Position numbers and translations under genes: made by a program | Sequence record: MN850581.1 | Reading direction: 5' to 3' (one strand) | Length of the DNA: 42,446 nucleotides | DNA from: Escherichia phage sortkaff | Shown here: in pieces, positions 4,632-36,615 of the stretch | Position numbering within the stretch: position 1 is the first letter of the stretch | Layout of the letters: each line of letters opens with the position of its first letter | The notes under the pieces: generated by a model | Told to the model about the DNA's origin: nothing | What the model saw: only the letters and a program-made list of their open reading frames with translations | The model's database searches: none

Positions 4632-5081
4632 GTAACGAAACCGTTACAGCTTGAGAATGTTACACACGATCGCGATTAACAGCGTTAACCCTGCGCCGTA
4701 GACTGCGAAACATATCCAGAGAAATGTCCACGATCCGACGGCTTCCCGGAGTGGTGTTTCCTGCTCCGGCGATGTTCTCCCTCGCGCTTTCCGGGAGGGG
4801 AATTTTATCACGTTAATAGTATGCTCCTTTGCATCACGTTTCAATGATAATTATGTGTGGAAATGGTCGGGGGTTTTGGGGTTTTAACCCCCGGCAAAAT
4901 CCCCGCCGTAACACTCAAAAAATACCCGTTACCGGAATGGCTGTAAGTTACTGAATATCATCGGTAACATTGTCGGTGTAACAGTGTTACCTTTTTGAAA
5001 CTTCGGAGCCACTGGGTAACGGTAACATAAATATATACCCCCTTTAGGGGGTATATGTTATGTAACCCGTGACCGTTACCA
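4632..5081. repeat. cluster of GTAAC/GTTAC iteron-like repeats and palindromes in a roughly 480-bp largely non-coding region
   Basis: About 13 GTAAC/GTTAC pentamers in about 450 bp: palindrome GTAACGAAACCGTTAC (4632-4647), CGGTAACAttgtCGGTGTAACAGTGTTAC (4962-4990), GGTAACGGTAAC (5015-5026), GTAACccgtgaccGTTAC (5062-5079). Also a 10-bp-arm palindrome ATATACCCCC-TTTA-GGGGGTATAT (5033-5056) and hairpin CGGGGGTT/AACCCCCG (4868-4893). Confidence 0.6.
4816..4844 (-). promoter_or_regulatory. sigma70-like promoter (-35 TTGAAA, 17-bp spacer, -10 TACTAT) with CGTGAT in the spacer and again just after the -10
   Basis: Minus-strand reading TTGAAA-CGTGATgcaaaggagca-TACTAT-taaCGTGAT; would drive the downstream early small genes (4611 leftward). 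Confidence 0.4.
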
Positions 5082-5094
5082 GGAAATGTGACCG

Positions 5095-6753
5095 TTAAAA
5101 ATCGTTAAGATCGTCGGCCCCGTCGTCGGCTTTATTGCCCCAGTCAGTCGGGCGCGGATCGTTATCCTTTATCCCACCCAGGAGCGGGATCGCTTCGTTC
5201 ATGGCGGTGAGCGTTTCGTCCCCGGCCATCTTGATCAGGATCTGCTTTTTGGTGGCATGTTCAAAGGCGCGATGGAATTGCATCTTGTCCATCGGGTCGT
5301 CGGTCCCGGTGCGCGCCCAGTCCGATAACATGCCTTTGGTAAGTTTCGGCGTCCGGTAGTTCTTTTCCTTTCGCGTCAGGTTGTACTCGTGGACAAACTG
5401 CGCCAGCCGGAGGGCGTTCTCCTGCGTCCGGCTCACCTTCTGCGCTGCGGCCTTCTCCTCGTCCGCGCCTGCGTCCTGTTTCACCAGCTCCGGCTCGTTG
5501 ATAACGATCAGGGTCGTGTCATTGCTGCCGATGTGCCACGCGGCGGGGCCGTCCTTCCCAGGTGCGGACATGCGCGCCATTGCGTCGCGTTTGGCCTTGA
5601 CCAGCTCCGGCGGGAGTTTAACGGACTTCGTGCGGAATGCGCGCCGCTCCAGCATGGCGGAGCCTTTGGCTTTGGTGTGATCGAATACGAACAAATCGCG
5701 GTCCTTGTGCTTCGAGAGCGTGATCTCAAAGGCGGAGTTAGCCTTGAGGGCAGACGCCCCACGTCCGCCGCGCGTTGCGTCCTTCCCGGAGTGGTGGAGG
5801 ATCACCACGGCACAGTCCAGCGCCTCGGCCAGCTTCTGCGCGTTGGCTAACAGGATCGCCGCCTGGTCGTTGTTGTTCTCGGTGAATGGCTCGCCGCCCA
5901 CCCAGCGCCCCGGCTCGTTGTCCTTCGGTTCGCGCCACTGCTCGCCGATCTTCTGGCCTGCGGAGTTGGCGCTATAGGTATCGATCACGACCAGCGCGGG
6001 CTTGTTGCCCTCCAGCTCGAAGAACGGGGAGGCGTTGAATTTGGCCGCGAATTTCATCAGCTCGCGCTCCCGGTGCAACGGTACGGGCTGCGCGATGATA
6101 AACAGGTTATCAAGCGGCTTGTTTTTGTTCTGGCTGTATACCCAGCCCGCATAGCGCTCTTTCACGCCGTCGGCGTCCTCTGGCGCGAAGTACAGCACGG
6201 AGCCTTTACGGACGGGCAAGCCCCCGAAGTGGTGGCCCTTCGCCACGCAGATAGCCATCTGGAGCGCACAAAACGTTTTCTTTGCCCCGGACTCGCCGAC
6301 CAGGAAGCCCACGGACCGCTCCGGGATCAGGTTCTGGATCACGAAGTTGATAACACGCGGGGCGCTGGCCTCCCGGAGCTTGTCCAGAAATTCGTCCGGC
6401 TGCTCCGCCAGCATGGCCTTAATTTTCGCCAGGTCACGCTCGCGGCGCTCCTCGGTGGTCAGGCTGCGCGGCATCATGGCGGGCTGGTTGTCCTCGTCCA
6501 GTACCATGTCCCACTCGTGATCCGCTTCGTTTGTGCCGAAGTGGTAGAGCTGCACGTCCTCTAACGTCATTCCCTGCTCTGCGGCTGCGTCCTCGTCGAT
6601 CGCCATCTGTCGGGCCAGCTCGTCCTCGCTCATTCCCGGCGAAGTCTCCAGCCATTCCGGCGGCTGCTCCAGAGGCCCGTCGTCTGGGAGGATCTGGTCG
6701 AGTAGCTCCTCTTTGCTCGGCTCCTGCTGGTCGTCTCTTTCGTCTTGGATCAT
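5095..6753 (-). CDS. RepA-like / RecA-fold (AAA_25-like) replication ATPase, putative replicative helicase or initiator
   Basis: 552-aa ORF with a degenerate P-loop VGESGAKKTFCALQMAICVAKG followed by hydrophobic-Asp Walker B (ALVVIDTYS) and an ILHHSGK motif; RBS AAGGAAAG; flanked on both sides by GTAAC repeats. Confidence 0.6.
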   Translation of the reverse strand: MIQDERDDQQEPSKEELLDQILPDDGPLEQPPEWLETSPGMSEDELARQMAIDEDAAAEQGMTLEDVQLYHFGTNEADHEWDMVLDEDNQPAMMPRSLTTEERRERDLAKIKAMLAEQPDEFLDKLREASAPRVINFVIQNLIPERSVGFLVGESGAKKTFCALQMAICVAKGHHFGGLPVRKGSVLYFAPEDADGVKERYAGWVYSQNKNKPLDNLFIIAQPVPLHRERELMKFAAKFNASPFFELEGNKPALVVIDTYSANSAGQKIGEQWREPKDNEPGRWVGGEPFTENNNDQAAILLANAQKLAEALDCAVVILHHSGKDATRGGRGASALKANSAFEITLSKHKDRDLFVFDHTKAKGSAMLERRAFRTKSVKLPPELVKAKRDAMARMSAPGKDGPAAWHIGSNDTTLIVINEPELVKQDAGADEEKAAAQKVSRTQENALRLAQFVHEYNLTRKEKNYRTPKLTKGMLSDWARTGTDDPMDKMQFHRAFEHATKKQILIKMAGDETLTAMNEAIPLLGGIKDNDPRPTDWGNKADDGADDLNDF

Positions 6754-7553: not shown

Positions 7554-8294
7554 ATGTTTATCGCCGTGAAAAAACATAACAGGCCCGTATTTTTGAACGT
7601 GAACGAGATCAAGATCATTCGCGACGCGGAGCCGGATATCCACAACCCGGACTATGATCCGAAGATCCACCCCGGCAGTGTGATTTTTACCACGACCGAT
7701 CAGCACAGTACGCTTGAGCGGTATTTCTCCAGCATGTCGCCGGAGGACCTGCGGGACGTGATCAACGATGCCGCCGCCCAGGTTTACGCGGCTCCTATCG
7801 CCGCCCGGATCATGAGCCTGGACAATTGCGTGGCCCGCCTGGCCCGGTCTATGGAGGACTGGCTGGAGCTGGCAAACACGCCGATCATTAACGGCGAGGA
7901 TCTGGACGTCCAGCGCATACTCGACGAGACAAAGCAGACGCTGGACAGCATCCAGCCGCGCCTCGTCGCTGGTGGTTCGCCCGGTAAGCCCCGGCATTTT
8001 GTCGGGCTGGACTCGGACGTGTTTAACGTGGTTCAGCTCCTCACGTCGCACGAGTGGGCCGATCACTGCACCAGTACGCAGTTAGGCCAGCGCCTGGAGT
8101 CGGCGATCACGGACCTGCATAACCACACCAGCGAGATCCGCCAGCGTAAGGACCGGGCGGAGGAGCTGCTGGCCGAAGTGTGGCACGAGTGGAATAACGA
8201 CGACGCCACGCGGAAAGCGCTCGGCGAGGATATGGGGAAAGTTATCGGGAATTTTTTGTGGCCCGATGAAAATAAAACTTGTGAGAAAGAATAA
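7554..8294 (+). CDS. hypothetical protein (246 aa)
   Basis: ORF with RBS GAGGAGA upstream; ATG immediately after the upstream stop. Confidence 0.7.
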   Translation: MFIAVKKHNRPVFLNVNEIKIIRDAEPDIHNPDYDPKIHPGSVIFTTTDQHSTLERYFSSMSPEDLRDVINDAAAQVYAAPIAARIMSLDNCVARLARSMEDWLELANTPIINGEDLDVQRILDETKQTLDSIQPRLVAGGSPGKPRHFVGLDSDVFNVVQLLTSHEWADHCTSTQLGQRLESAITDLHNHTSEIRQRKDRAEELLAEVWHEWNNDDATRKALGEDMGKVIGNFLWPDENKTCEKE

Positions 8295-8307
8295 ATCACG
8301 ATATAGT
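8279..8307 (+). promoter_or_regulatory. sigma70-like promoter (-35 TTGTGA, 17-bp spacer, -10 TATAGT) with ATCACGA in the spacer, followed by a GC hairpin
   Basis: TTGTGA-gaaagaataaATCACGA-TATAGT; the -35 overlaps the last codons of the upstream gene; hairpin GCCGGGG-aatgg-CCCCGGC at 8317-8335 lies in the leader. Confidence 0.4.
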
Positions 8308-8354
8308 TAAGTTGTCGCCGGGGAATGGCCCCGGCAATAACGGAGATTAAGACG

Positions 8355-8594
8355 ATGGCAAAATTAACAGTAGTTTCCCCGACTTCCCAGGAACGTGGCC
8401 GCCAGTGGGCTGTTAACTTCCACGTCGTAGGCGCTCCAGTTCGCCGTCGCTTCCTCTCCTGGAAAGCGCCGGAGCTGCTGAAAGGCGAGGAGCCGGAGGT
8501 GGAGGATTACGTGGACGAGTACACCACACGCGGCGAATACGAAGCCCGCCGCATCATCCATCGCAACAACCTGCGCGCCGCTGAATACTACTAA
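8355..8594 (+). CDS. hypothetical small protein
   Basis: 79 aa from MAKLTVV...; GGAG about 8 nt upstream. The ATG at 8325 lies inside the leader hairpin, so 8355 is preferred. Confidence 0.6.
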   Translation: MAKLTVVSPTSQERGRQWAVNFHVVGAPVRRRFLSWKAPELLKGEEPEVEDYVDEYTTRGEYEARRIIHRNNLRAAEYY

Positions 8595-8637
8595 CCACAC
8601 GGCCCCTACGGGGGCCACATCCACCCAGGAGCAAGCC

Positions 8638-8985
8638 ATGACAACAATCATTTACGCCTTACCTAAGCGCACATCACACGCGCGCACGTCTCGATCCACG
8701 CCACTGATCAGCCGTAAAAATTACAGCCTGATTACAGTCGGCGAGCTGGTGAAGTCCACGCCGAAAGGGAAGAAAATTATCCCGCTCTGGTACAACAATC
8801 CGCGCCCCCAGTTTTTCGGGAGCGACTCTTATCACTTTTTCGATAACGTCAAAGACGCGGCGGAGCATATCCGGCACGAGCTGGCCGGGACGTACAAACT
8901 TCTTAACGATCAGGCGAAGTTTATCGCGGAGCTGATCGAGGAGGCGGATCAGATCTACATATCAGCCACGGATCCAACGGCATGA
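8638..8985 (+). CDS. hypothetical protein
   Basis: 115-aa ORF with RBS GGAG (cacccaGGAGcaagccATG). Confidence 0.65.
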   Translation: MTTIIYALPKRTSHARTSRSTPLISRKNYSLITVGELVKSTPKGKKIIPLWYNNPRPQFFGSDSYHFFDNVKDAAEHIRHELAGTYKLLNDQAKFIAELIEEADQIYISATDPTA

Positions 8986-9203
8986 TCCCGGCGGACATTC
9001 AGCGCAAGGCTAAAAAGGTCCTCCAGCGCCACCTCGCCGGGGAGATTAAGCCCCGGAAGCTGGTCGGCGGTCTGGGCCTCGCGCTGGAGGTTGGTTATCG
9101 CTGGCGGCTGCTGTCACGCGATAAGGGCCAGACGTGGGATCTCATGTCCCACGAGAAGTACAACAAACTTACACGGGGCAAAAAGCCCCCTAAAATGAGA
9201 TGA
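8982..9203 (+). CDS. hypothetical small basic protein
   Basis: 73-aa ORF; start overlaps the upstream stop (ATGA). Confidence 0.55.
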   Translation: MIPADIQRKAKKVLQRHLAGEIKPRKLVGGLGLALEVGYRWRLLSRDKGQTWDLMSHEKYNKLTRGKKPPKMR

Positions 9204-9487
9204 TCACAATGGAAAAATACTGGTATTTGTTCGAGGCGCACGGTCGCCAGGTCCTGGTCCGCAAGGGGTCAAACGACGACAACGATCCGACGATCGATCT
9301 CGTGGTCCAGATCGCCGGGGCGGAAATTTCTTTCGCGGTTATCTACGGGAACGAGGGCGGCGAGGAGGAGCGCGATCGCATGTTCGACACGAAGGAGGAG
9401 GAGCTGAAAGGGGCGGCTACTGCTTTCGCGGAAAAATTCATCGGCATCACTAACCCTATGGACGCGTTAGCCGCTTTACAAGGTTAA
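9200..9487 (+). CDS. hypothetical small acidic protein
   Basis: 95-aa ORF; start overlaps the upstream stop. Confidence 0.55.
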   Translation: MITMEKYWYLFEAHGRQVLVRKGSNDDNDPTIDLVVQIAGAEISFAVIYGNEGGEEERDRMFDTKEEELKGAATAFAEKFIGITNPMDALAALQG

Positions 9488-9513
9488 TCAGCGCCTTAAC
9501 ATTCGATCGATAT

Positions 9514-9540
9514 GGAGCCTTTGCGGCTCCATTTTTTTTC
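9514..9540 (+). terminator. rho-independent terminator
   Basis: Stem GGAGCC-tttgc-GGCTCC followed by ATTTTTTTT. Confidence 0.7.
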
Positions 9541-9587
9541 GTGCTACCCTTTTAGCGGTTACTCAATTGTTAAAAGGGATCAGGATA

Positions 9588-9944
9588 ATGTCCGAACATA
9601 GCACGCTCTGGCAGTTGTTCCAGGTGTACCGCGTGGAGTTGGGTTACTCCTTTGTGTCTGCGGCGGTCGCCGTCTTTCGTCACTGGCAGTTAAAACACCC
9701 ATTCCGTGATATAGTTACGGGTGGCGCTTTGTGCGCTTTCGTCGCGTTTGGGATGAATAATATCCTTTCGTTTTTTAATATTGATCACGGGACCTGGGGC
9801 TATCTGGCCTCTGTATTCCTGGGCTATATCGGCGTAGAGACTGCGCTCGACTGGGCCAGCGAAAAGATCCCGTTTCTGAAAAAAATCCGCGCCACTCCGG
9901 CGCATACCACTAACCCGGAGGATCCGACCGATGGCAAAGTTTGA
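9588..9944 (+). CDS. S: class I holin, lambda S-like
   Basis: Similar to lambda S as recalled from memory (SVFLGYIGVETALDW versus lambda SVFIGYIGTDS); hydrophobic TM segments; ATG with AGGA RBS. An in-frame TTG at 9567 would add MLKGIRI. Confidence 0.75.
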   Translation: MSEHSTLWQLFQVYRVELGYSFVSAAVAVFRHWQLKHPFRDIVTGGALCAFVAFGMNNILSFFNIDHGTWGYLASVFLGYIGVETALDWASEKIPFLKKIRATPAHTTNPEDPTDGKV

Positions 9945-10404
9945 AGTTACTACCCAGCGCAAGGCGTTTCTGGACGCTCTGGCCGTTGGCGAGGGGACCG
10001 ATAACGGCAAGCAAAAAACGAACAATCACGGCTACGACGTGATCGTGGGCGGCGAGCTGTTTACCGATTACAGCAAGCATCCGGCGAAGCTGGTCCGCCT
10101 GCGCCCCGGCCTCTCCTCTACCGCTGCTGGCCGTTATCAGCTCCTGAGCAAGTATTACGGCCACTATAAGGACCTGCTGGGCCTGCCGGACTTCTCCCCG
10201 GCGTCGCAGGACCAGATCGCCCTCCAGCAAATCAGCGAGCGCCGCGCGCTGGCCGACATTGACGCAGGCCGGATCGCCGACGCGGTGAAAAAATGTAACA
10301 CCATCTGGGCCTCCCTGCCTGGCTCGCCGTATGGTCAGCGCACGGAGACGCTCGACGACTTCCTGAGCTATTTCCGCAAGGCTGGCGGTAAGGTCGCCGA
10401 ATGA
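9931..10404 (+). CDS. R: endolysin, lambda R-type lytic transglycosylase
   Basis: 157 aa with extended similarity to lambda R recalled from memory (QRKAFLD, EGTDNG, NHGYDVIVGGELFTDYS, AGRYQLL, FSP.SQD..ALQQI, IWASLPG); catalytic-Glu context GEGT; RBS GGAGGA. Confidence 0.9.
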   Translation: MAKFEVTTQRKAFLDALAVGEGTDNGKQKTNNHGYDVIVGGELFTDYSKHPAKLVRLRPGLSSTAAGRYQLLSKYYGHYKDLLGLPDFSPASQDQIALQQISERRALADIDAGRIADAVKKCNTIWASLPGSPYGQRTETLDDFLSYFRKAGGKVAE

Positions 10405-12790: not shown

Positions 12791-13027
12791 TTAACAATCT
12801 TTGTGGTCGTCCCACGGTCCGAAGCCTCCCACGTAGACAAATTCTCCGCCGTTCTCCCGGCGCTCCTGCCTGGCGTGATATGCCGCGTTCTGCCCGGTTC
12901 GTTTCTCCTGCTTCATTGCCTTGCAGGTCTTGGAACAAAAGCGGCCCCAGCCCCGTTTAAGGTCCGCCACGCGGACCTCGTGCATTTTGCCGCACCATTC
13001 GCACGGCTTGATTTTTTTAGCGGCCAT
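12791..13027 (-). CDS. hypothetical zinc-ribbon protein
   Basis: 78 aa with CEWCG ... CSKTC (C-x2-C ... C-x3-C); start overlaps the upstream gene's end. Confidence 0.55.
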   Translation of the reverse strand: MAAKKIKPCEWCGKMHEVRVADLKRGWGRFCSKTCKAMKQEKRTGQNAAYHARQERRENGGEFVYVGGFGPWDDHKDC

Positions 13028-13380: not shown

Positions 13381-13410
13381 ATAAAAGAGAAAAGGCCCCG
13401 GAGTGGGGCC
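13381..13410 (-). terminator. rho-independent terminator after the Dam operon
   Basis: Minus-strand stem GGCCCC-actcc-GGGGCC followed by UUUUCUCUUUUAU. Confidence 0.7.
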
Positions 13411-13415
13411 TGAGA

Positions 13416-14153
13416 CTAGCGGACGTTAGCGAGGAAGGTCGCGAGCGCGAAGCCCTCCGGGGTGGCGCTGCGTATGTTCTTTGTGCGGGTACTCGATCCG
13501 CCCAGCTTGGACCAGCCGGGATTATCTTTAGCCGCCGGGACTGGCTTCACCTCCGGCATAACGAAGCCGCCACCACACCAGATCCCGGTCTGCTTCGGAT
13601 AGGCATCGCGCGCCGGGTAGATCTCCGGGTATAGGCGGTGCTGGTGGTCGTCCGGCAAGTAGCCGCCGTAATGGTACGGGTGAAACCAGTAATCACAGGG
13701 CCGCCACATCGTCGAGAGCCGGGAGATCTTCGGATTCTCCAGCATCCACGGAACGGGCCGCGAATCGTCATAGCTGCCATTCTCATAGGCGGCGAAGTTC
13801 GCCACCTCCTCCACCATGCGAGCCAGCGCGACGGCCTTGTGTTGGAAGTACGGATCCCGCGCCCGTTTCAGCTCCCACCAGCGCGCCCCGGTGCAAGTAA
13901 GGTCGGTACACTCGGCAAACGAGGCGACAAACTCAATACCGGGGCCGACCTCCTCGACAATGGTCAGCGCCTCGATCTCGGTATGCTGCGCGTTAAACAT
14001 GCGCCCGACGCGGATAAGGTTCGGCTCCTGCGGGTCTGGGTGGATCCCGTCCTCGTGCTGGCCGTCATACATCCAGCATTGATAGCCAGCCCGGAGCCAC
14101 GGATCAACCATGATCCGCGTAAGGTTGAATAAGAATATCGCCTTACGCGTCAT
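13416..14153 (-). CDS. hypothetical protein, possible nucleic-acid-modifying enzyme (unassigned)
   Basis: 245 aa, aromatic-rich, with short motifs reminiscent of but not diagnostic for C5-methyltransferases (LENP, TPEGFALA). Translationally coupled to the upstream gene with a GAGG RBS. Confidence 0.7.
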   Translation of the reverse strand: MTRKAIFLFNLTRIMVDPWLRAGYQCWMYDGQHEDGIHPDPQEPNLIRVGRMFNAQHTEIEALTIVEEVGPGIEFVASFAECTDLTCTGARWWELKRARDPYFQHKAVALARMVEEVANFAAYENGSYDDSRPVPWMLENPKISRLSTMWRPCDYWFHPYHYGGYLPDDHQHRLYPEIYPARDAYPKQTGIWCGGGFVMPEVKPVPAAKDNPGWSKLGGSSTRTKNIRSATPEGFALATFLANVR

Positions 14154-14154
14154 G

Positions 14155-14739
14155 TTACGGCCTCGCTGGCATAATGATCATCGTGGACGGTCCGAAAGGC
14201 GTCTTAAACTCGACGCGCATCGGCATGTTATTACCCGCGAAGTGGAGATCAACAAACGGCATCTTAATCCCGAATTTTTTCCCCAGCTTTTCGACGAGGC
14301 CCAGATATTCCGCCATCACCTTAACGTCCGTCACGGCTTTGGAGTTGTTCTTCGCGCTCTCGATCACTGCGGTAAGGTTCGGATAATTGGCGTCCACGAC
14401 GTCAACCGTCCCGACGGCCAGGCGCTGGCGGCGGAAGTCGAAGCCCTCCAGGTCCTGCGGCTTGTCTGCCATCTGCGCGCACCAGTACACGATCCCGGCT
14501 TCGGTATCGATCACGGCGGTAGAGTAGGCGCGCCCGGTCGGCGGTGTGGAAACGTTCAGGATCAGGCCATCCGCCGGGGCCTCGGTCAGCGCGGAGCGGG
14601 TGGAGAGCGCTACGTGGCCGTTAGACGTCTGGATCTCGTCGCCTTTGAAGTGTAAAGCGTTCAGGTAATACCGCACATCCTGGCGGCCTTTGGTGAGCTG
14701 GTGAGCGCGGAGCGCGTCAACGGGTGCATAGATGATCAT
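14155..14739 (-). CDS. hypothetical protein
   Basis: 194 aa; RBS AAGGGGGA 8 nt upstream; sits between the Dam gene and the 245-aa gene in the same operon. Confidence 0.7.
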   Translation of the reverse strand: MIIYAPVDALRAHQLTKGRQDVRYYLNALHFKGDEIQTSNGHVALSTRSALTEAPADGLILNVSTPPTGRAYSTAVIDTEAGIVYWCAQMADKPQDLEGFDFRRQRLAVGTVDVVDANYPNLTAVIESAKNNSKAVTDVKVMAEYLGLVEKLGKKFGIKMPFVDLHFAGNNMPMRVEFKTPFGPSTMIIMPARP

Positions 14740-14752
14740 CTTTGAGTCCCCC

Positions 14753-15453
14753 TTAAATCAGGCTTTTGCCTGCGTACATCATTTCGGTAAGCGTTACGTA
14801 TTCCGTCTTGATCTCGCCGCGCTTGCGGGGCTTGATCAGGAATAAAACGGACGACTTCGCATTTTTGCCGCCAGGTTCCCCGGTCACGGCATCCACAAAC
14901 GCCACGCGCCCGGACGTCTCGCCGTCGCTGGTGATGTGGACAATGACGGACGCATGATCCAGCGCTTTCTTAAACCAGGCCGTAGAGGCGTCGGAGTTCA
15001 CGAGGAGGACCGTCGAGACGCCGCGCGTCTTTGCCTGCTCGATCGCTTTGGTCACAAACGGCATCGGCTCCGCGTATGGTGGGTTACACCACGCCAGCCC
15101 GTTCTCCGCGCCCCAGTTCACTTCGTCGCGGAGGGCGTTCGTCTCCTGTCCAGATAGCAGGCGCACAGGGCGTTAATCTTCTCGGCGGCCACGTCGATCC
15201 CAAACTCGCCGAAACGCTTACGCGCCCAGGCGAAAAGCCACTCCGGCGTCCGCCACTTCTGGCGCACTTTGTCCGGCGTCTTGCTGCCTTTGAAACGGCG
15301 ACCGCTCACGCGGTTCTCGTCGTCGGCCATGATCTCGTTAGTCGCTTTCTGGCCGATGGCCGCGAGCTGGGTCATAACGCCGGGGGCCACGCCATGCTCC
15401 GCGCCTGCCTGCTCCAGCATTTCGATCGTGCTCTTGTCGTTCTCGTATTTCAT
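14753..15453 (-). pseudogene. dam: phage Dam-type DNA N6-adenine methyltransferase (NPPY motif), interrupted by a frameshift
   Basis: N-terminal part (15118..15453, ...WRTPEWLFAWARKRFGEFGIDVAAEKINALCACYL) and C-terminal part (14753..15166, ...NWGAENGLAWCNPPYAEP...) lie in frames offset by one base. Frame switch must fall between plus 15121 and 15171; no slippery heptamer seen. Confidence 0.65.
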
Positions 15454-15483: not shown

Positions 15484-15512
15484 AACATAATGGAAGCGTG
15501 ATTTTATTTCAA
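15484..15512 (-). promoter_or_regulatory. sigma70-like promoter for the Dam operon (-35 TTGAAA, 17-bp spacer, -10 TATGTT) with ATCACGCTTCC in the spacer
   Basis: Minus-strand reading TTGAAA-taaaATCACGCTTCCat-TATGTT-aATTGCG; closely matches the promoter at 2220..2248; RBS AAAGGA before the Dam ATG. Confidence 0.45.
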
Positions 15513-15592: not shown

Positions 15593-15618
15593 GGCCCCTC
15601 GTGCGGGGCCTTTTTTTT
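15593..15618 (+). terminator. canonical rho-independent terminator oriented for plus-strand transcripts
   Basis: GGCCCC-tcgtgc-GGGGCC followed by T8. The T-tract overlaps the primase stop codon on the opposite strand; no plus-strand gene is evident upstream. Confidence 0.55.
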
Positions 15619-16497: not shown

Positions 16498-18552
16498 ATG
16501 GTAGAGACACTGGAGCGCCAGATAGCGGCGATCGACAAAGACGCCATACTCCGCGCGCTGGGCGACTTGCCCGTGACTCCATACGATCATCAGTTCGTAG
16601 CGTATGAGGCTTGTCAGCAAGCTATCCGCAAATATCCCGGCCCGGTTATTGTGGATGCCGCCGTTTCTGCGGGTAAGACAATCATGATCGCCATGCTGGC
16701 GCGCCGGATCCGCGATCTCGGCTATCCGGCCATGATCCTGTCCCGTCAGGCGGAGATCATCGATCAGGACCATGAGGAGCTGAAAAACTTCCAGGTGTGG
16801 TCCTCGATCTACTGCGCGGGCATCAATAACACGAAGTCGAACAAATTCCCGATCATCGTCGGCTCGGAGGGTACGGTGATCGGCGGCATTAAGCCAGGCG
16901 AAAAGCTGGCGAACTATGCGCCGCTGTTCCTGCTGATCGATGAATGCCATCACGTCAACATAGAGGACCTGATCCGCTCTGAAAATCGCAAGGTCCCGGA
17001 GTACCTGGTGGAGAATGGGGCCTATGTGCTGGACGAGTTCGGCGAAAAGGTTCAGGTAGGGGAGCACGTCGGCGAGACTTACGAAGAAATGATCGAGAGT
17101 GGCCGCGCCGCCTATACGATCATCATTCGCACTTTTCAGGAGCGATGCCGCCGCGTCCACGGTAAGGAGCTGCGGATCATCGGTTACACCGGGACGCCTT
17201 ACCGGGGCTGCGAGTCCATCATCCAGCCGGACCTTAAGGAGCCGGGATTCTGGCGTAAGAAGGTATGCGAGATCTCTACGGAATACCTTGTAAGCGTCGG
17301 CGCTGTCGTCCCGACACGCTTCGGGATCTCCGATCTCCGGTACGACCTGAGCCAGTGGCGATCGACGGGCGAGGAGGGGATCAAGGAGTTTTCCGACGCT
17401 GATATGAAAGCGATGGAAGCCGCGATCCACAAGGACAAAAAGCTAACACAAAAAATCATGGCGGAAGTGTACGCCATCACTGAAAACCGTAACGGGGTGC
17501 TGGTGACGTGCGCCGGGGTCCGCCACTGCAAAGAGGCCGCCGCCGCGCTGCCGGAGGGGACGCCGTTCGCCATCATCACGGAGGACACGACGCCGCGCAA
17601 ACGCCGCGAGATCCTCAAAGATGCCAATACGGGCAAAATAAAATTCATCTTCCAGGTTAACGCGCTCACGACGGGCGTCAACGTGCCTTTCTGGGACACG
17701 TCGGTGATCCTGCGTAAGATTGGCTCCCTCACCCTGTTAACCCAGCTCTTAGGCCGTGGTATGCGTATTCTTAAGCCGTTCCATCTGGCCGCCGGGTACA
17801 CGAAAGAGGATCACCTGGTACTCGACTACGCCGGGACGCTCGACGAGCTGGGATCGTTGTACTTCTCCCCGCTGCTGGAGGCTTACCAGCATAACGCCGA
17901 CGAGAGCAAGGGTAAGCTGGTTCAGCGCTGCCCGAAATGTTACGCGGCTGGCCGCACGGTCATGAATGGCGAACATGCCCGCCGTTGCCGCTGGGTGGAT
18001 CCTGATACGAAAATCCGATGTGACCACTTTTTCACGTTCATAACCTGCGACGACTGGAAGGACTCCAGCGGGAAGATCGTCACGCAAAAAGGCTGCGGCG
18101 CGAAAAATGACATTGTGGCCCGCATCTGCCGCTGCTGCGGTAATAGCCTTGTGGATCCGAATGAAAAGCTATCACACACGGCATACAGCAAAGATGATTA
18201 TTGCACGGTCCGCGATTTCAGGATCGAGCCAGCGCGAGGCCGTAATGGCAACGATACGGGCGGCGTGGCTTTCCGGTACGTTCTGGAGCGTGACGGCGTG
18301 GAGTTTATCGCGTGGCAAGTGTTCTGGCCGGGTAGCGATTCCCCCCAGGCGCGCAAGGAGTGGCTACATAACGCGGTCAATAAGCACGTACTGGACGGAA
18401 GCATGAGAAAACAGATCAAGGAGTGCCGGACGGTCGGCGCTGTCATGAGTTACGCCGGGTACTTTATGCGCCCGCTCAAAGTGACTCACCGCAAGATCGG
18501 CAAGGGTAAAGACGTTATTTCGAACAAAATTTTTCTGAATGAGGACTTTTAA
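16498..18552 (+). CDS. superfamily-2 DNA helicase (DEAH-box) with C-terminal Cys-rich zinc-finger-like region
   Basis: 684 aa; Walker A DAAVSAGKT, DEAH box LLIDECHH, C-terminal CPKC ... C ... CRCC cluster. Confidence 0.8.
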   Translation: MVETLERQIAAIDKDAILRALGDLPVTPYDHQFVAYEACQQAIRKYPGPVIVDAAVSAGKTIMIAMLARRIRDLGYPAMILSRQAEIIDQDHEELKNFQVWSSIYCAGINNTKSNKFPIIVGSEGTVIGGIKPGEKLANYAPLFLLIDECHHVNIEDLIRSENRKVPEYLVENGAYVLDEFGEKVQVGEHVGETYEEMIESGRAAYTIIIRTFQERCRRVHGKELRIIGYTGTPYRGCESIIQPDLKEPGFWRKKVCEISTEYLVSVGAVVPTRFGISDLRYDLSQWRSTGEEGIKEFSDADMKAMEAAIHKDKKLTQKIMAEVYAITENRNGVLVTCAGVRHCKEAAAALPEGTPFAIITEDTTPRKRREILKDANTGKIKFIFQVNALTTGVNVPFWDTSVILRKIGSLTLLTQLLGRGMRILKPFHLAAGYTKEDHLVLDYAGTLDELGSLYFSPLLEAYQHNADESKGKLVQRCPKCYAAGRTVMNGEHARRCRWVDPDTKIRCDHFFTFITCDDWKDSSGKIVTQKGCGAKNDIVARICRCCGNSLVDPNEKLSHTAYSKDDYCTVRDFRIEPARGRNGNDTGGVAFRYVLERDGVEFIAWQVFWPGSDSPQARKEWLHNAVNKHVLDGSMRKQIKECRTVGAVMSYAGYFMRPLKVTHRKIGKGKDVISNKIFLNEDF

Positions 18553-20107: not shown

Positions 20108-20833
20108 ATGGAAAACATCATCCAGTTTTCGGCCACTCGTGGCGAGTTTATGAAAGCGTTTTTTGCCGCCCGGAAGAACATCGGCACGATCTCCAAAACG
20201 CGCAAAAACGATCACTTAAAATCGACTTACGCCAACCTGTCGGACTACCTGGACGCCATCGACTCCGCGATCGAGGAGCAAGGCTTGATGGTGATCCAGT
20301 CTCCGGGCGCGTTTACCGCTGCGGGCGATATGCCGATGGAAACCAGGATCGAGCATGTCGAATCGGGCGAGTTTATGGTGGCGCTCATGGAGATCCACGT
20401 CGATCGTAAAAACGCCCAGGGCGACGGCTCCGCGATTTCCTACGCCCGCCGCTACCACATCGGCGCGCTGTTCGGTCTGACTGCCGACGACGACGACGGC
20501 CACGGCGCTAAACGCAAGTTTGCCGACTACAAAAAAGAGTTTGACCTGATCGAAGATATTACCGAACTGAAAAAAGAGGCCCGCGTGGCGTTCATGTACC
20601 TGAAAGGCCAGGAGACGGAGCAAAACCTGATCCACGAGTACGTCGCGAAGCGTGAAGCCAAAGCGGCGGCCTCTACTGCGGTCGGTTTCAATCCGGCGGC
20701 CCCGGTTGCTCGTCGTGGTCAGAAGCCGCAAAATGCGCAAGCCCCGGTACAGGGGCAGACGCCGGAGCCGGAAACGAAAGAGGCCCCTGCTCCGGTACAG
20801 GACGACAAAAAACCGAATCTTGAGGACTTCTAA
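20108..20833 (+). CDS. erf: ERF-family single-strand annealing protein
   Basis: 241 aa; similarity to P22 Erf recalled from memory ([14 protein letters not shown] and [15 protein letters not shown] versus P22 SSYARKYCLNGLFG); RBS AAGGAG. Confidence 0.8.
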
Positions 20834-20835
20834 AC

Positions 20836-21384
20836 ATGGCATCACGCGGCGTAAATAAGGTGATTCTGGTCGGCAATCTGGGACAGGATCCCGAAGTAAG
20901 ATATATGCCGTCGGGCGGGGCGGTCGCGAACATCACGATCGCCACCTCTGAGTCTTGGCGCGATAAGCAGACCGGGGAGCAAAAGGAGCAAACGGAATGG
21001 CATCGCGTGGTGCTGTTCGGCAAGCTGGCGGAGATCGCCGGGGAGTACCTCAAAAAAGGCTCGCAGGTCTACATTGAGGGCCAGCTTAGGACGCGCAAAT
21101 GGACAGACCAGCAAGGCGTCGAGAAGTACACGACGGAGGTCGTCGTGAACGTTGGCGGCACTATGCAAATGCTGGGTAGCCGGGGCGGGAATGATGGCGG
21201 CCAGTCTGGGGGGAACGGTGGCGGGCGTCAGTATTCCGGCCAGACCTCCGGCGGGAATGGCAATTCTCGCAATTCTCCGGGCCGTGGCGGGGCGCAAACG
21301 CAAAAAGGAGGGGGTAGTAGCCAAAATGCGGGACAAGGCGCTGGAGAGCCTCCTATGGACTTCGACGATGATATCCCGTTTTAA
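20836..21384 (+). CDS. ssb: single-stranded DNA-binding protein
   Basis: 182 aa; classic SSB OB-fold N-terminus ([43 protein letters not shown]...[12 protein letters not shown]), Gly/Gln-rich linker and acidic tail DFDDDIPF. Confidence 0.95.
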
Positions 21385-35881: not shown

Positions 35882-36148
35882 CTATTTCGTGGCGGCTTTC
35901 ACGAGGCATTGAGACAGATATAGCGCTTCGTGGTGCGGCGGGACCGAAGCGGGGATCACGCAGTACAGCGCGACGTTAGGCCCCGTGTTCGCGTGGATCA
36001 TTTCGCTGGCGACTATCCGCCACTTTTCGCCGTCCGGCCCGGTCAGGATGCCGTCGAGGTCGTGTAGTTCTTCCTTGACCTGCGCGATCCGGCTTAACGT
36101 TGTCGGTCCCTTCCCTGGGAACGCGAGATAGTGATGGACGGTTTTCAA
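35882..36148 (-). CDS. hypothetical protein (cassette gene D)
   Basis: 88-aa ORF whose start overlaps the stop of gene C (ATGA). Confidence 0.55.
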   Translation of the reverse strand: MKTVHHYLAFPGKGPTTLSRIAQVKEELHDLDGILTGPDGEKWRIVASEMIHANTGPNVALYCVIPASVPPHHEALYLSQCLVKAATK

Positions 36149-36615
36149 AATGGTATGTCCAGCGGCTTGTCGTTGTTGGCCGGAGGAACGATCTCGGCGT
36201 CCTCCACGTCCTCCGCTTTGCGCGGGTTCACTTCGCGGGCTGCGTCCGCTGCGGCCACAAAATCGCCCTCCAGCGGCCCCTTGTAGGTCAGTTGTTTAAT
36301 GCTGGCGATATCTGCGAGGAGCTTCGACTCTGCCACTACAAAGTCGGCGCGGAGTTTCTGGAGTCCGGCTTCCATGATCGGGAGGCTGATCTCTGCCTGC
36401 TCCTCGGCGGTCGGCATGGTGTAATCAATATCGATCTCGATCTCTTTTAACAGGACGTAAGCCGCATTTTTGCCGCCTGAATTAATATGCTCCTGGACGC
36501 CCCAGATCGCGCCGTAATCGTAACTTTCCACGGACACGGATCCGCGCTTGTCGCCGCCCTGGCTACCTTCGGCCACGCAAAGGCAAACGTACATTGTTTT
36601 TTTGATAGTTGGCAT
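36145..36615 (-). CDS. hypothetical protein (cassette gene C)
   Basis: 156-aa ORF; RBS AAGAGGA; no recognisable motif. Confidence 0.65.
   Translation of the reverse strand: MPTIKKTMYVCLCVAEGSQGGDKRGSVSVESYDYGAIWGVQEHINSGGKNAAYVLLKEIEIDIDYTMPTAEEQAEISLPIMEAGLQKLRADFVVAESKLLADIASIKQLTYKGPLEGDFVAAADAAREVNPRKAEDVEDAEIVPPANNDKPLDIPF

Follow-up and report, generated by a model that had tools for sequence, protein, structure and literature searches.

We analysed a locus of Escherichia phage sortkaff (MN850581.1; the window is this whole sequence of 42,446 nt) in which two open reading frames (ORFs), encoding proteins of 194 and 245 amino acids (aa), lie past a Dam methyltransferase gene on the minus strand. 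On balance we think it probable that three genes, in the order Dam - mini-beta - Dcm-like, form an early operon here, in which the 245-aa protein is a minimal enzyme of the C5 methyltransferase family and the 194-aa protein (mini-beta) is a cut-down clamp that docks motifs off the ring. Both proteins are of recognisable kinds and it is the variants that are new, the methyltransferase having altered hallmark motifs and the clamp a pocket-only architecture. A sequence-only reading had considered DNA modification or anti-restriction plausible for both. For the 245-aa protein this stands as the leading reading; it does not hold for the 194-aa protein, a homologue of the replication sliding clamp DnaN.

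Sortkaff is a podophage of the genus Sortsnevirus, related to Escherichia phage Sortsne and to the Murrayvirus phages. Over a 4-kb stretch spanning the locus, identity was 97.8% to Klebsiella phage vB_KpnS_IME279 and 85.6% to Kosakonia phage Kc237. In comparisons with IME279, Kc237 and Sortsne, the ratio of nonsynonymous to synonymous substitution rates (dN/dS) was 0.17-0.26 for the 194-aa gene and 0.18-0.21 for the 245-aa gene, indicating purifying selection on both. Neither protein matched anything in Pfam, NCBIfam or PADLOC.

The 194-aa protein as a truncated sliding clamp homologue

We used profile comparisons to identify the 194-aa protein. A profile of its close relatives matched the E. 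coli beta clamp (DnaN) with an E-value of 9e-9, in three colinear pieces corresponding to DnaN 139-176, 232-253 and 330-365, and a profile of 46 diverse relatives gave E 1.8e-21. PF02767, the DnaN central domain, was matched by 18 of the 46; no relative of the 194-aa protein matched PF02768 at E<=0.01. The protein itself aligned only with DnaN residues of about 136-250 and 312-366. Its layout is that of DnaN domain II minus one channel helix, which runs straight into the final beta-alpha-beta-beta-beta unit of domain III. Compared with DnaN (366 aa), it thus lacks domain I and the dimer-interface segment 251-311, which includes I272/L273, residues whose mutation renders beta monomeric (PMC11139829).

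The hydrophobic docking pocket was retained, and nothing else in the protein is as well conserved. The E. coli DnaN (PF02767/PF02768) motifs DVRYYLN, NGH, VDxxxPD, EYL and (I/V)MPxR were all found in the 194-aa protein, and 10 of 18 pocket residues in subsites I and II were identical to those of DnaN. When the clamp pocket residues listed in PMC11139829 were mapped onto the family, they accounted for 10 of the 18 positions conserved at >=80% (R152, L155, T172, G174, H175, P242, Y323, M362, P363 and R365; hypergeometric p 8e-8). The isoelectric point (pI) is raised, with a family median of 8.5 vs 5.25 for E. coli beta, and Kazlauskas and Venclovas have described high pI as a mark of loader-less, non-ring viral clamp homologues (PMC3201878). 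These homologues resemble mini-beta in their clamp fold and raised pI, and their proposed or known partner binding takes place at the equivalent of the pocket without encircling DNA (PMC3201878).

An exhaustive search with the mini-beta hidden Markov model (HMM) returned 1,780 cluster representatives at E<=1e-3 and 246 at E<=1e-10. Nearly all of the best 150 representatives were 148-229 aa long, the few shorter ones resembling fragments. Members were found in 137 phage records, and a viral structure library was full of similar short phage proteins; in the literature we found no study of truncated phage beta clamps. By these comparisons, the 194-aa protein is a truncated DnaN homologue and not an enzyme. 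The sequence-only reading had called it enzyme-sized, and had named homology to a replication-accessory protein as an outcome that would speak against a role in DNA modification; homology to DnaN is such an outcome.

Current annotation says otherwise. RefSeq and PHROGs label the 194-aa protein a RusA-like Holliday junction resolvase; phrog_3007, which bears this label, matched at E 4.6e-43, and the label is repeated across RefSeq records. We detected no sequence or fold similarity to RusA (PF05866) in the 194-aa protein, and the DnaN homology together with the fold evidence rules the label out; the chance that the protein is a resolvase is practically nil.

Beyond the sortkaff lineage, the mini-clamp was found standing alone near or inside head or tail modules in EP23 (Dhillonvirus), Shewanella phage 1/41, BASEL phage Bas81 and a metagenomic contig (coordinates of lone copies: EP23, 4977-5489; locus L024, 5001-5531; locus L022, 4974-5510; locus L015, 6001-6624). 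In EP23, Shewanella phage 1/41 and L015 it lay on the strand opposite to its neighbours, a moron-like placement. The annotated relative IME279 carries a RepA-like ATPase, primase, DEAD/DEAH helicase, exonuclease VIII, Erf and a protein that binds single-stranded DNA (SSB), and no DNA polymerase gene was present in its annotation. A link between the mini-clamp and a missing phage polymerase was considered and rejected, as EP23 has both its own DNA polymerase and a mini-clamp. Given the lone placements and the EP23 polymerase, the mini-clamp is, unlike DnaN, a mobile phage accessory gene and no fixed part of a replisome; it comes with no encoded clamp loader. Lone mini-clamps bear conflicting names in the databases (RusA-like resolvase, DNA polymerase, DNA pol III beta, beta clamp domain protein).

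On our favoured reading, mini-beta would bind clamp-binding peptides of the QLxLF type off the ring and act either as a decoy or as a loader-independent tether to phage DNA. It may be a non-ring mimic of the host clamp docking pocket, capturing the owners of such peptides off DNA. The proteins captured may include the host DNA polymerase III (Pol III) alpha or epsilon subunit, the delta clamp-loader subunit, Hda, MutL, translesion polymerases and others, or phage proteins. RecBCD is a further possible candidate, and is said, in the title of a recent preprint, to bind beta.

Alternatively, the 194-aa protein could be a true processivity clamp that closes into a ring, perhaps as a higher-order oligomer, is loaded by the host clamp loader and serves host Pol III on phage DNA. 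This would fit the clear DnaN homology and the preserved polymerase-docking pocket, the replication genes adjoining the mini-clamp in the sortkaff lineage, and the dependence of IME279-type phages, which have no DNA polymerase, on host Pol III. However, only about 1.5 clamp domains are present, a channel-lining helix is missing in addition to domain I and the I272/L273 interface, the family pI is high as in the non-ring viral homologues, and elsewhere the gene is a lone, moron-like one far from replication genes, also in phages with their own polymerase. We consider a ring quite unlikely, since the interfaces missing from the sequence and the high pI argue against a closed one.

Several points weigh against the docking model, too. 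The sortkaff protein has a pI of 7.8 and is merely mildly basic. We found no convincing clamp-binding motifs in the phage's own replication proteins, and the occurrence of the mini-clamp in phages both with and without a polymerase means that a specific partner cannot be deduced. The E. coli DnaN sequence used for mapping, profile comparison and pI was entered by hand; its numbering agrees with PDB alignments.

Our scan of the phage's proteins for the clamp-binding motif gave only two matches. These fell in an antisense ORF that probably does not code and in a tail-spike-like protein, and we attribute both to chance. We also observed acidic L-x-(E)-D-F tails on the RepA-like ATPase (5095-6753, minus strand; DDLNDF), the helicase (16498-18552, plus strand; FLNEDF) and Erf (20108-20833, plus strand; NLEDF). 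SSB (about 20836-21384, plus strand) ends in DDDIPF, and an unrelated 156-aa protein (36145-36615, minus strand) terminates in PLDIPF, apparently mimicking the tip of SSB. Endings of this sort might be a common code for docking to some hub protein. The L-x-(E)-D-F tails are conserved in Sortsne and not in Skarpretter, which also has a mini-clamp; they were rejected as mini-clamp ligands for this reason and are left as an observation.

The 245-aa protein as a divergent Dcm-like protein

The 245-aa protein matched phrog_757 ('DNA methyltransferase' in PHROGs) over residues 2-243 with an E-value of 3.3e-66 and had at least 418 homologues, many of them annotated as Dcm methylase. tblastn traced this small phage Dcm family to 1,480 phage records, among them Drexlerviridae, Dhillonvirus, Vequintavirinae and Klebsiella siphophages, and the 'Dcm' of phage JK16 was matched at 100% coverage and 38% identity (E 4e-45). 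Structure prediction, which the sequence-only reading had proposed, gave a confident AlphaFold model (predicted local distance difference test, pLDDT, 93.6). The protein has a class I methyltransferase fold of the C5 methyltransferase type, and in the model this is a DNMT3-like catalytic core without a large target-recognition domain. The protein had been noted as aromatic-rich and as faintly resembling methyltransferases; both remarks were correct. It contains 9 W, 12 Y and 11 F (13.1%), and the resemblance is that of a phrog_757 family member whose fold is DNMT3-like and which has the invariant Cys together with ENP.

The catalytic residues are conserved. Invariant in the clade of the 245-aa protein are E81-C82-T83 (motif IV), E139-N140-P141 (motif VI, ENV) and R228-S229-x-T231-P232 (motif X). 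E139-N140-P141 was unchanged in 38 of 38 clade sequences, and it is also conserved in the second, canonical clade into which the family divides. Distant homologues sit in unrelated early or nin-type gene contexts, as is typical of orphan phage methyltransferases.

An experimental anchor is provided by the 711-bp dcm gene of Drexlerviridae phage K42, which encodes a DNMT3A-like enzyme with C82, E128, K175 and K176, the residues mutated in its inactive form (bioRxiv 10.1101/2023.08.16.553469). K42 Dcm is reported to place 5-methylcytosine (5mC) on multicopy single-stranded DNA (msDNA), as determined by liquid chromatography-mass spectrometry at a CCWGG site, and thereby to trigger retron Ec86/Eco1 (bioRxiv 10.1101/2023.08.16.553469). 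The JK16 dcm gene is also 711 bp long and has C82, E128, K175 and K176 at identical positions. Because gene length and residue numbering agree, we took JK16 Dcm as the K42 Dcm orthologue and used it for comparison. Of the four K42 residues, C82 (C82 in the 245-aa protein), E128 (E139) and K175 (K187) were conserved, and K176 was replaced by Q188.

The K42/KarlJaspers-type Dcm of Drexlerviridae, as represented by JK16, resembles the 245-aa protein in its phrog_757 membership, its size (236 vs 245 aa) and its DNMT3-like core without a large target-recognition domain. With JK16 Dcm it has in common the catalytic Cys82, the glutamate of ENP and, of the two lysines that bind DNA, the first; the two proteins differ in motif I (FDGSG vs FNLTR), in motif IV (FPPC vs FAEC) and at the second lysine. 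The 245-aa protein has about 11 residues inserted ahead of ENP, and its N-terminal half contains an additional helix; JK16 Dcm has neither. The C-terminal, DNA-facing halves were 57% identical, the N-terminal, cofactor-binding halves only 32%, compared with 38% overall. Identity to the catalytic domains of mammalian DNMT3A and DNMT3B was 12-15%, with no significant sequence or HMM match; their SAM (S-adenosylmethionine) loop and Pro-Cys are not conserved in the 245-aa protein, which also lacks their regulatory domains and partner subunits.

As one family member is reported to form 5mC, a role in DNA modification or anti-restriction is the leading reading for the 245-aa protein. In the mechanism we propose, the protein would flip a cytosine, Cys82 would attack C6, Glu139 of ENP would protonate N3, and the methyl group of SAM would be added at C5. 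5mC formed in this way on phage DNA, the site probably being CCWGG-like, would blunt restriction. By analogy with K42 Dcm, the product could also expose the phage to retron Ec86/Eco1. For the 245-aa clade, SAM use, methyl transfer and target site are all inferred.

Several observations count against this reading. 5mC activity has been reported, in a preprint, solely for the canonical clade (K42/JK16), which has LFDGSG in motif I and FPPC in motif IV, and JK16 Dcm is linked to K42 Dcm by gene length and residue numbering, not by the K42 sequence. In the 245-aa clade, motif I reads [FY]DxTG or FNxxx, motif IV carries Glu-Cys, and FDGQH is invariant. The 245-aa protein itself has FNLTR in motif I, against a consensus of [FY]-D-x-T-G for its clade, F-D-G-S-G in JK16 and F-D-G-I-A in DNMT3B, so both glycines of the FxGxG SAM loop are replaced. 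In motif IV, Glu81-Cys82 (FAEC/FPEC) stands in place of the near-universal Pro-Cys; the Pro before Cys was absent from all 117 motif-pattern matches among the top 120 homologues, one of which has Asp. Within the clade, three positions near the expected cofactor site were found to co-vary, being D..G / MW / P in the main group and N..R / RM / A in the sub-group of the 245-aa protein. With the threshold at E<=10, PF00145 still gave no match to the 245-aa protein or to any of the 38 members of its clade (one canonical-clade family member reached E 0.0076, below the cut-off), and single-sequence and profile searches of the PDB with the 245-aa protein were empty or insignificant. When the clade profile was aligned by hhalign with DNMT3B motifs I-IV, only an insignificant alignment of motif IV (E 0.18) was obtained.

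Alternatively, the 245-aa protein might keep the covalent-catalysis machinery without making normal use of SAM. It might then be inactive, might bind DNA or flip bases without transfer, or might draw on a different donor, for instance carboxy-SAM (a product of CmoA in enterobacteria), to add a non-methyl group. Against a dead enzyme stand the strength of the purifying selection and the invariance of Cys and ENP. As regards another donor, the arginine (GRS in DNMT3) is also found in the canonical clade reported to make 5mC and is therefore non-discriminating, and neither cmoA nor a ligase gene is present in the annotated relative IME279. CmoX, a phage DNA cytosine C5-carboxymethyltransferase of 333 aa (PDB 8yf3), has a canonical SAM-type pocket and cmoA and ligase neighbours, none of which is seen in the 245-aa protein or its locus, and it has an SPPC motif, by which its relatives are defined and which the 245-aa protein lacks (PMC12783734). 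We regard abnormal SAM use as unlikely, and methylation at C5 as the leading reading.

Operon structure and genomic neighbourhood

The features of the locus are listed in Table 1. One base separates the stop codon (TAA) of the 194-aa gene from the ATG of the 245-aa gene, and 13 nt, containing a GGGGGA Shine-Dalgarno-like run, separate the Dam stop from the ATG of the 194-aa gene; the tight coupling described for the two ORFs was thus confirmed. The operon had also been credited with its own promoter and a strong terminator. We found a hairpin with a T-rich tail directly past the 245-aa stop. The promoter is less secure, as two sigma-70-like matches were found in the region vs 1.5 expected by chance; the match is not significant by itself and the call relies on its position. 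The primase gene is on the same strand as the operon, but is set off by an intergenic hairpin and the promoter.

Table 1. Coordinates of features in the Dam - mini-beta - Dcm-like locus of sortkaff
Feature	Position	Strand	Remarks
Sigma-70-like promoter, TTGAAA-17-TATGTT	15484..15512	-	9/12 match; inside the 163-nt primase-Dam gap
Dam N-terminal fragment, 111-aa ORF	15118..15453	-	PF05869 profile 1-47, E 1.3e-10; cut off by frameshift
Dam C-terminal fragment, 137-aa ORF in another frame, with NPPY	14753..15166	-	PF05869 profile 48-167, E 2.3e-29
194-aa mini-beta, truncated beta sliding clamp homologue (domain II and C-terminal half of domain III), clamp-binding-motif pocket kept	14155..14739	-	
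245-aa small phage Dcm-like protein of C5-cytosine methyltransferase fold, divergent clade (FNLTR / FAEC / ENP / IRSATP)	13416..14153	-	
Intrinsic-terminator-like hairpin, 7-bp GC-rich stem and T-rich tail	13393..13411	-	Directly past the 245-aa stop; operon end

Co-location with Dam had been taken as a hint of a DNA-modification or anti-restriction role. The order Dam - mini-clamp - Dcm-like is kept in Sortsnevirus, Murrayvirus and the distant Skarprettervirus (clamp 40% identical), but outside these genera both genes occur separately, as mobile stand-alone genes. The unrelated contexts of the distant homologues indicate that the order is lineage-specific, and we rejected gene neighbourhood as a guide to function. 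Around its conserved core of Dam - mini-clamp, the module is plastic. In Skarpretter (41-2549), an insertion of two small genes separates the mini-clamp from a Dcm-like gene of the main clade (FDRTG); between primase and Dam, a dUTPase is found in Sortsne (7870-10307) and Skarpretter, the latter also having a band-7 protein.

The operon might nevertheless be a functional unit in which the mini-clamp would tether Dam and the Dcm-like methyltransferase to replicating phage DNA, much as DNMT1 binds PCNA. The gene order kept across three genera and the translational coupling of the ORFs would be in keeping with such tethering, as would a QAEMIF sequence near the C-terminus of Sortsne Dam that fits the hexameric clamp-binding consensus. 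However, this motif is not conserved (LTEMMY in sortkaff and IME279, QQQMRD in Skarpretter) and its position falls within the Dam domain; no conserved clamp-binding motif was found in the methyltransferases. Outside the lineage both genes stand alone, without methyltransferase or clamp neighbours, and synteny inside a single lineage can be plain vertical inheritance. We saw no pointer to a joint hypermodification pathway or to cooperation of the 245-aa and 194-aa proteins, and judge the tethering proposal very improbable.

Relative to IME279, where Dam is one intact coding sequence of 233 aa, the sortkaff Dam gene (14753-15453, minus strand) has lost 1 nt between 15148 and 15147 and is thereby split over two frames. 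The deletion site reads GGAC-AGGAG in sortkaff vs GGACGAGGAG in IME279, and the two ORFs meet exactly in the Pfam Dam profile (positions 1-47 and 48-167). The frameshift is either a true pseudogene of the sortkaff isolate or an assembly error.

We also counted potential methylation sites in the whole window. There were 464 GATC sites vs 206 +/- 13 expected from dinucleotide shuffles, and 150 CCWGG sites vs 90 +/- 8 expected. No avoidance of either site was found, both being strongly over-represented. Codon usage (ATC, CTG) may explain the excess, so the counts are uninformative on methyltransferase specificity.

Two further elements flank the operon. A GC hairpin at 15593-15610, past the primase, has its T-run on the plus strand and an A-run on the primase strand; with the T-run in this orientation, it resembles a terminator of antisense (plus-strand) transcription and not one of the primase. 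Just downstream of the operon, a 78-aa zinc-ribbon protein (12791-13027, minus strand) showed a weak, sub-threshold likeness to Lar-like restriction-alleviation proteins (Pfam E 0.005; phrog_599 E 0.0025).

Implications for phage-host interactions

Pfam does not capture the small phage Dcm family, although about 1,480 sequenced phages carry it. The clade of the 245-aa protein has altered both hallmark motifs, the SAM glycine loop and Pro-Cys, while retaining the nucleophile. At stake for this clade are whether it continues to methylate, what such methylation would protect against, and whether it would alert retron Eco1.

Two bolder readings, independent of one another, can be put forward tentatively, and taken together we hold them to be possible but doubtful. 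One is that mini-beta represents an unrecognised class of phage host-takeover or anti-defence proteins; the other, that the Glu-Cys, glycine-less Dcm clade has a remodelled cofactor site and makes a non-methyl product.

The identification of mini-beta corrects a RusA-like resolvase mis-annotation that has been propagated in RefSeq and in PHROG-derived annotations. The phage family that it defines is large, widespread and mis-annotated, and what its members seem to preserve of the host sliding clamp is just the pocket for docking partners. If mini-betas bind clamp-binding motifs, they would provide a compact natural tool and a new phage route to manipulate the host replication and repair hub.

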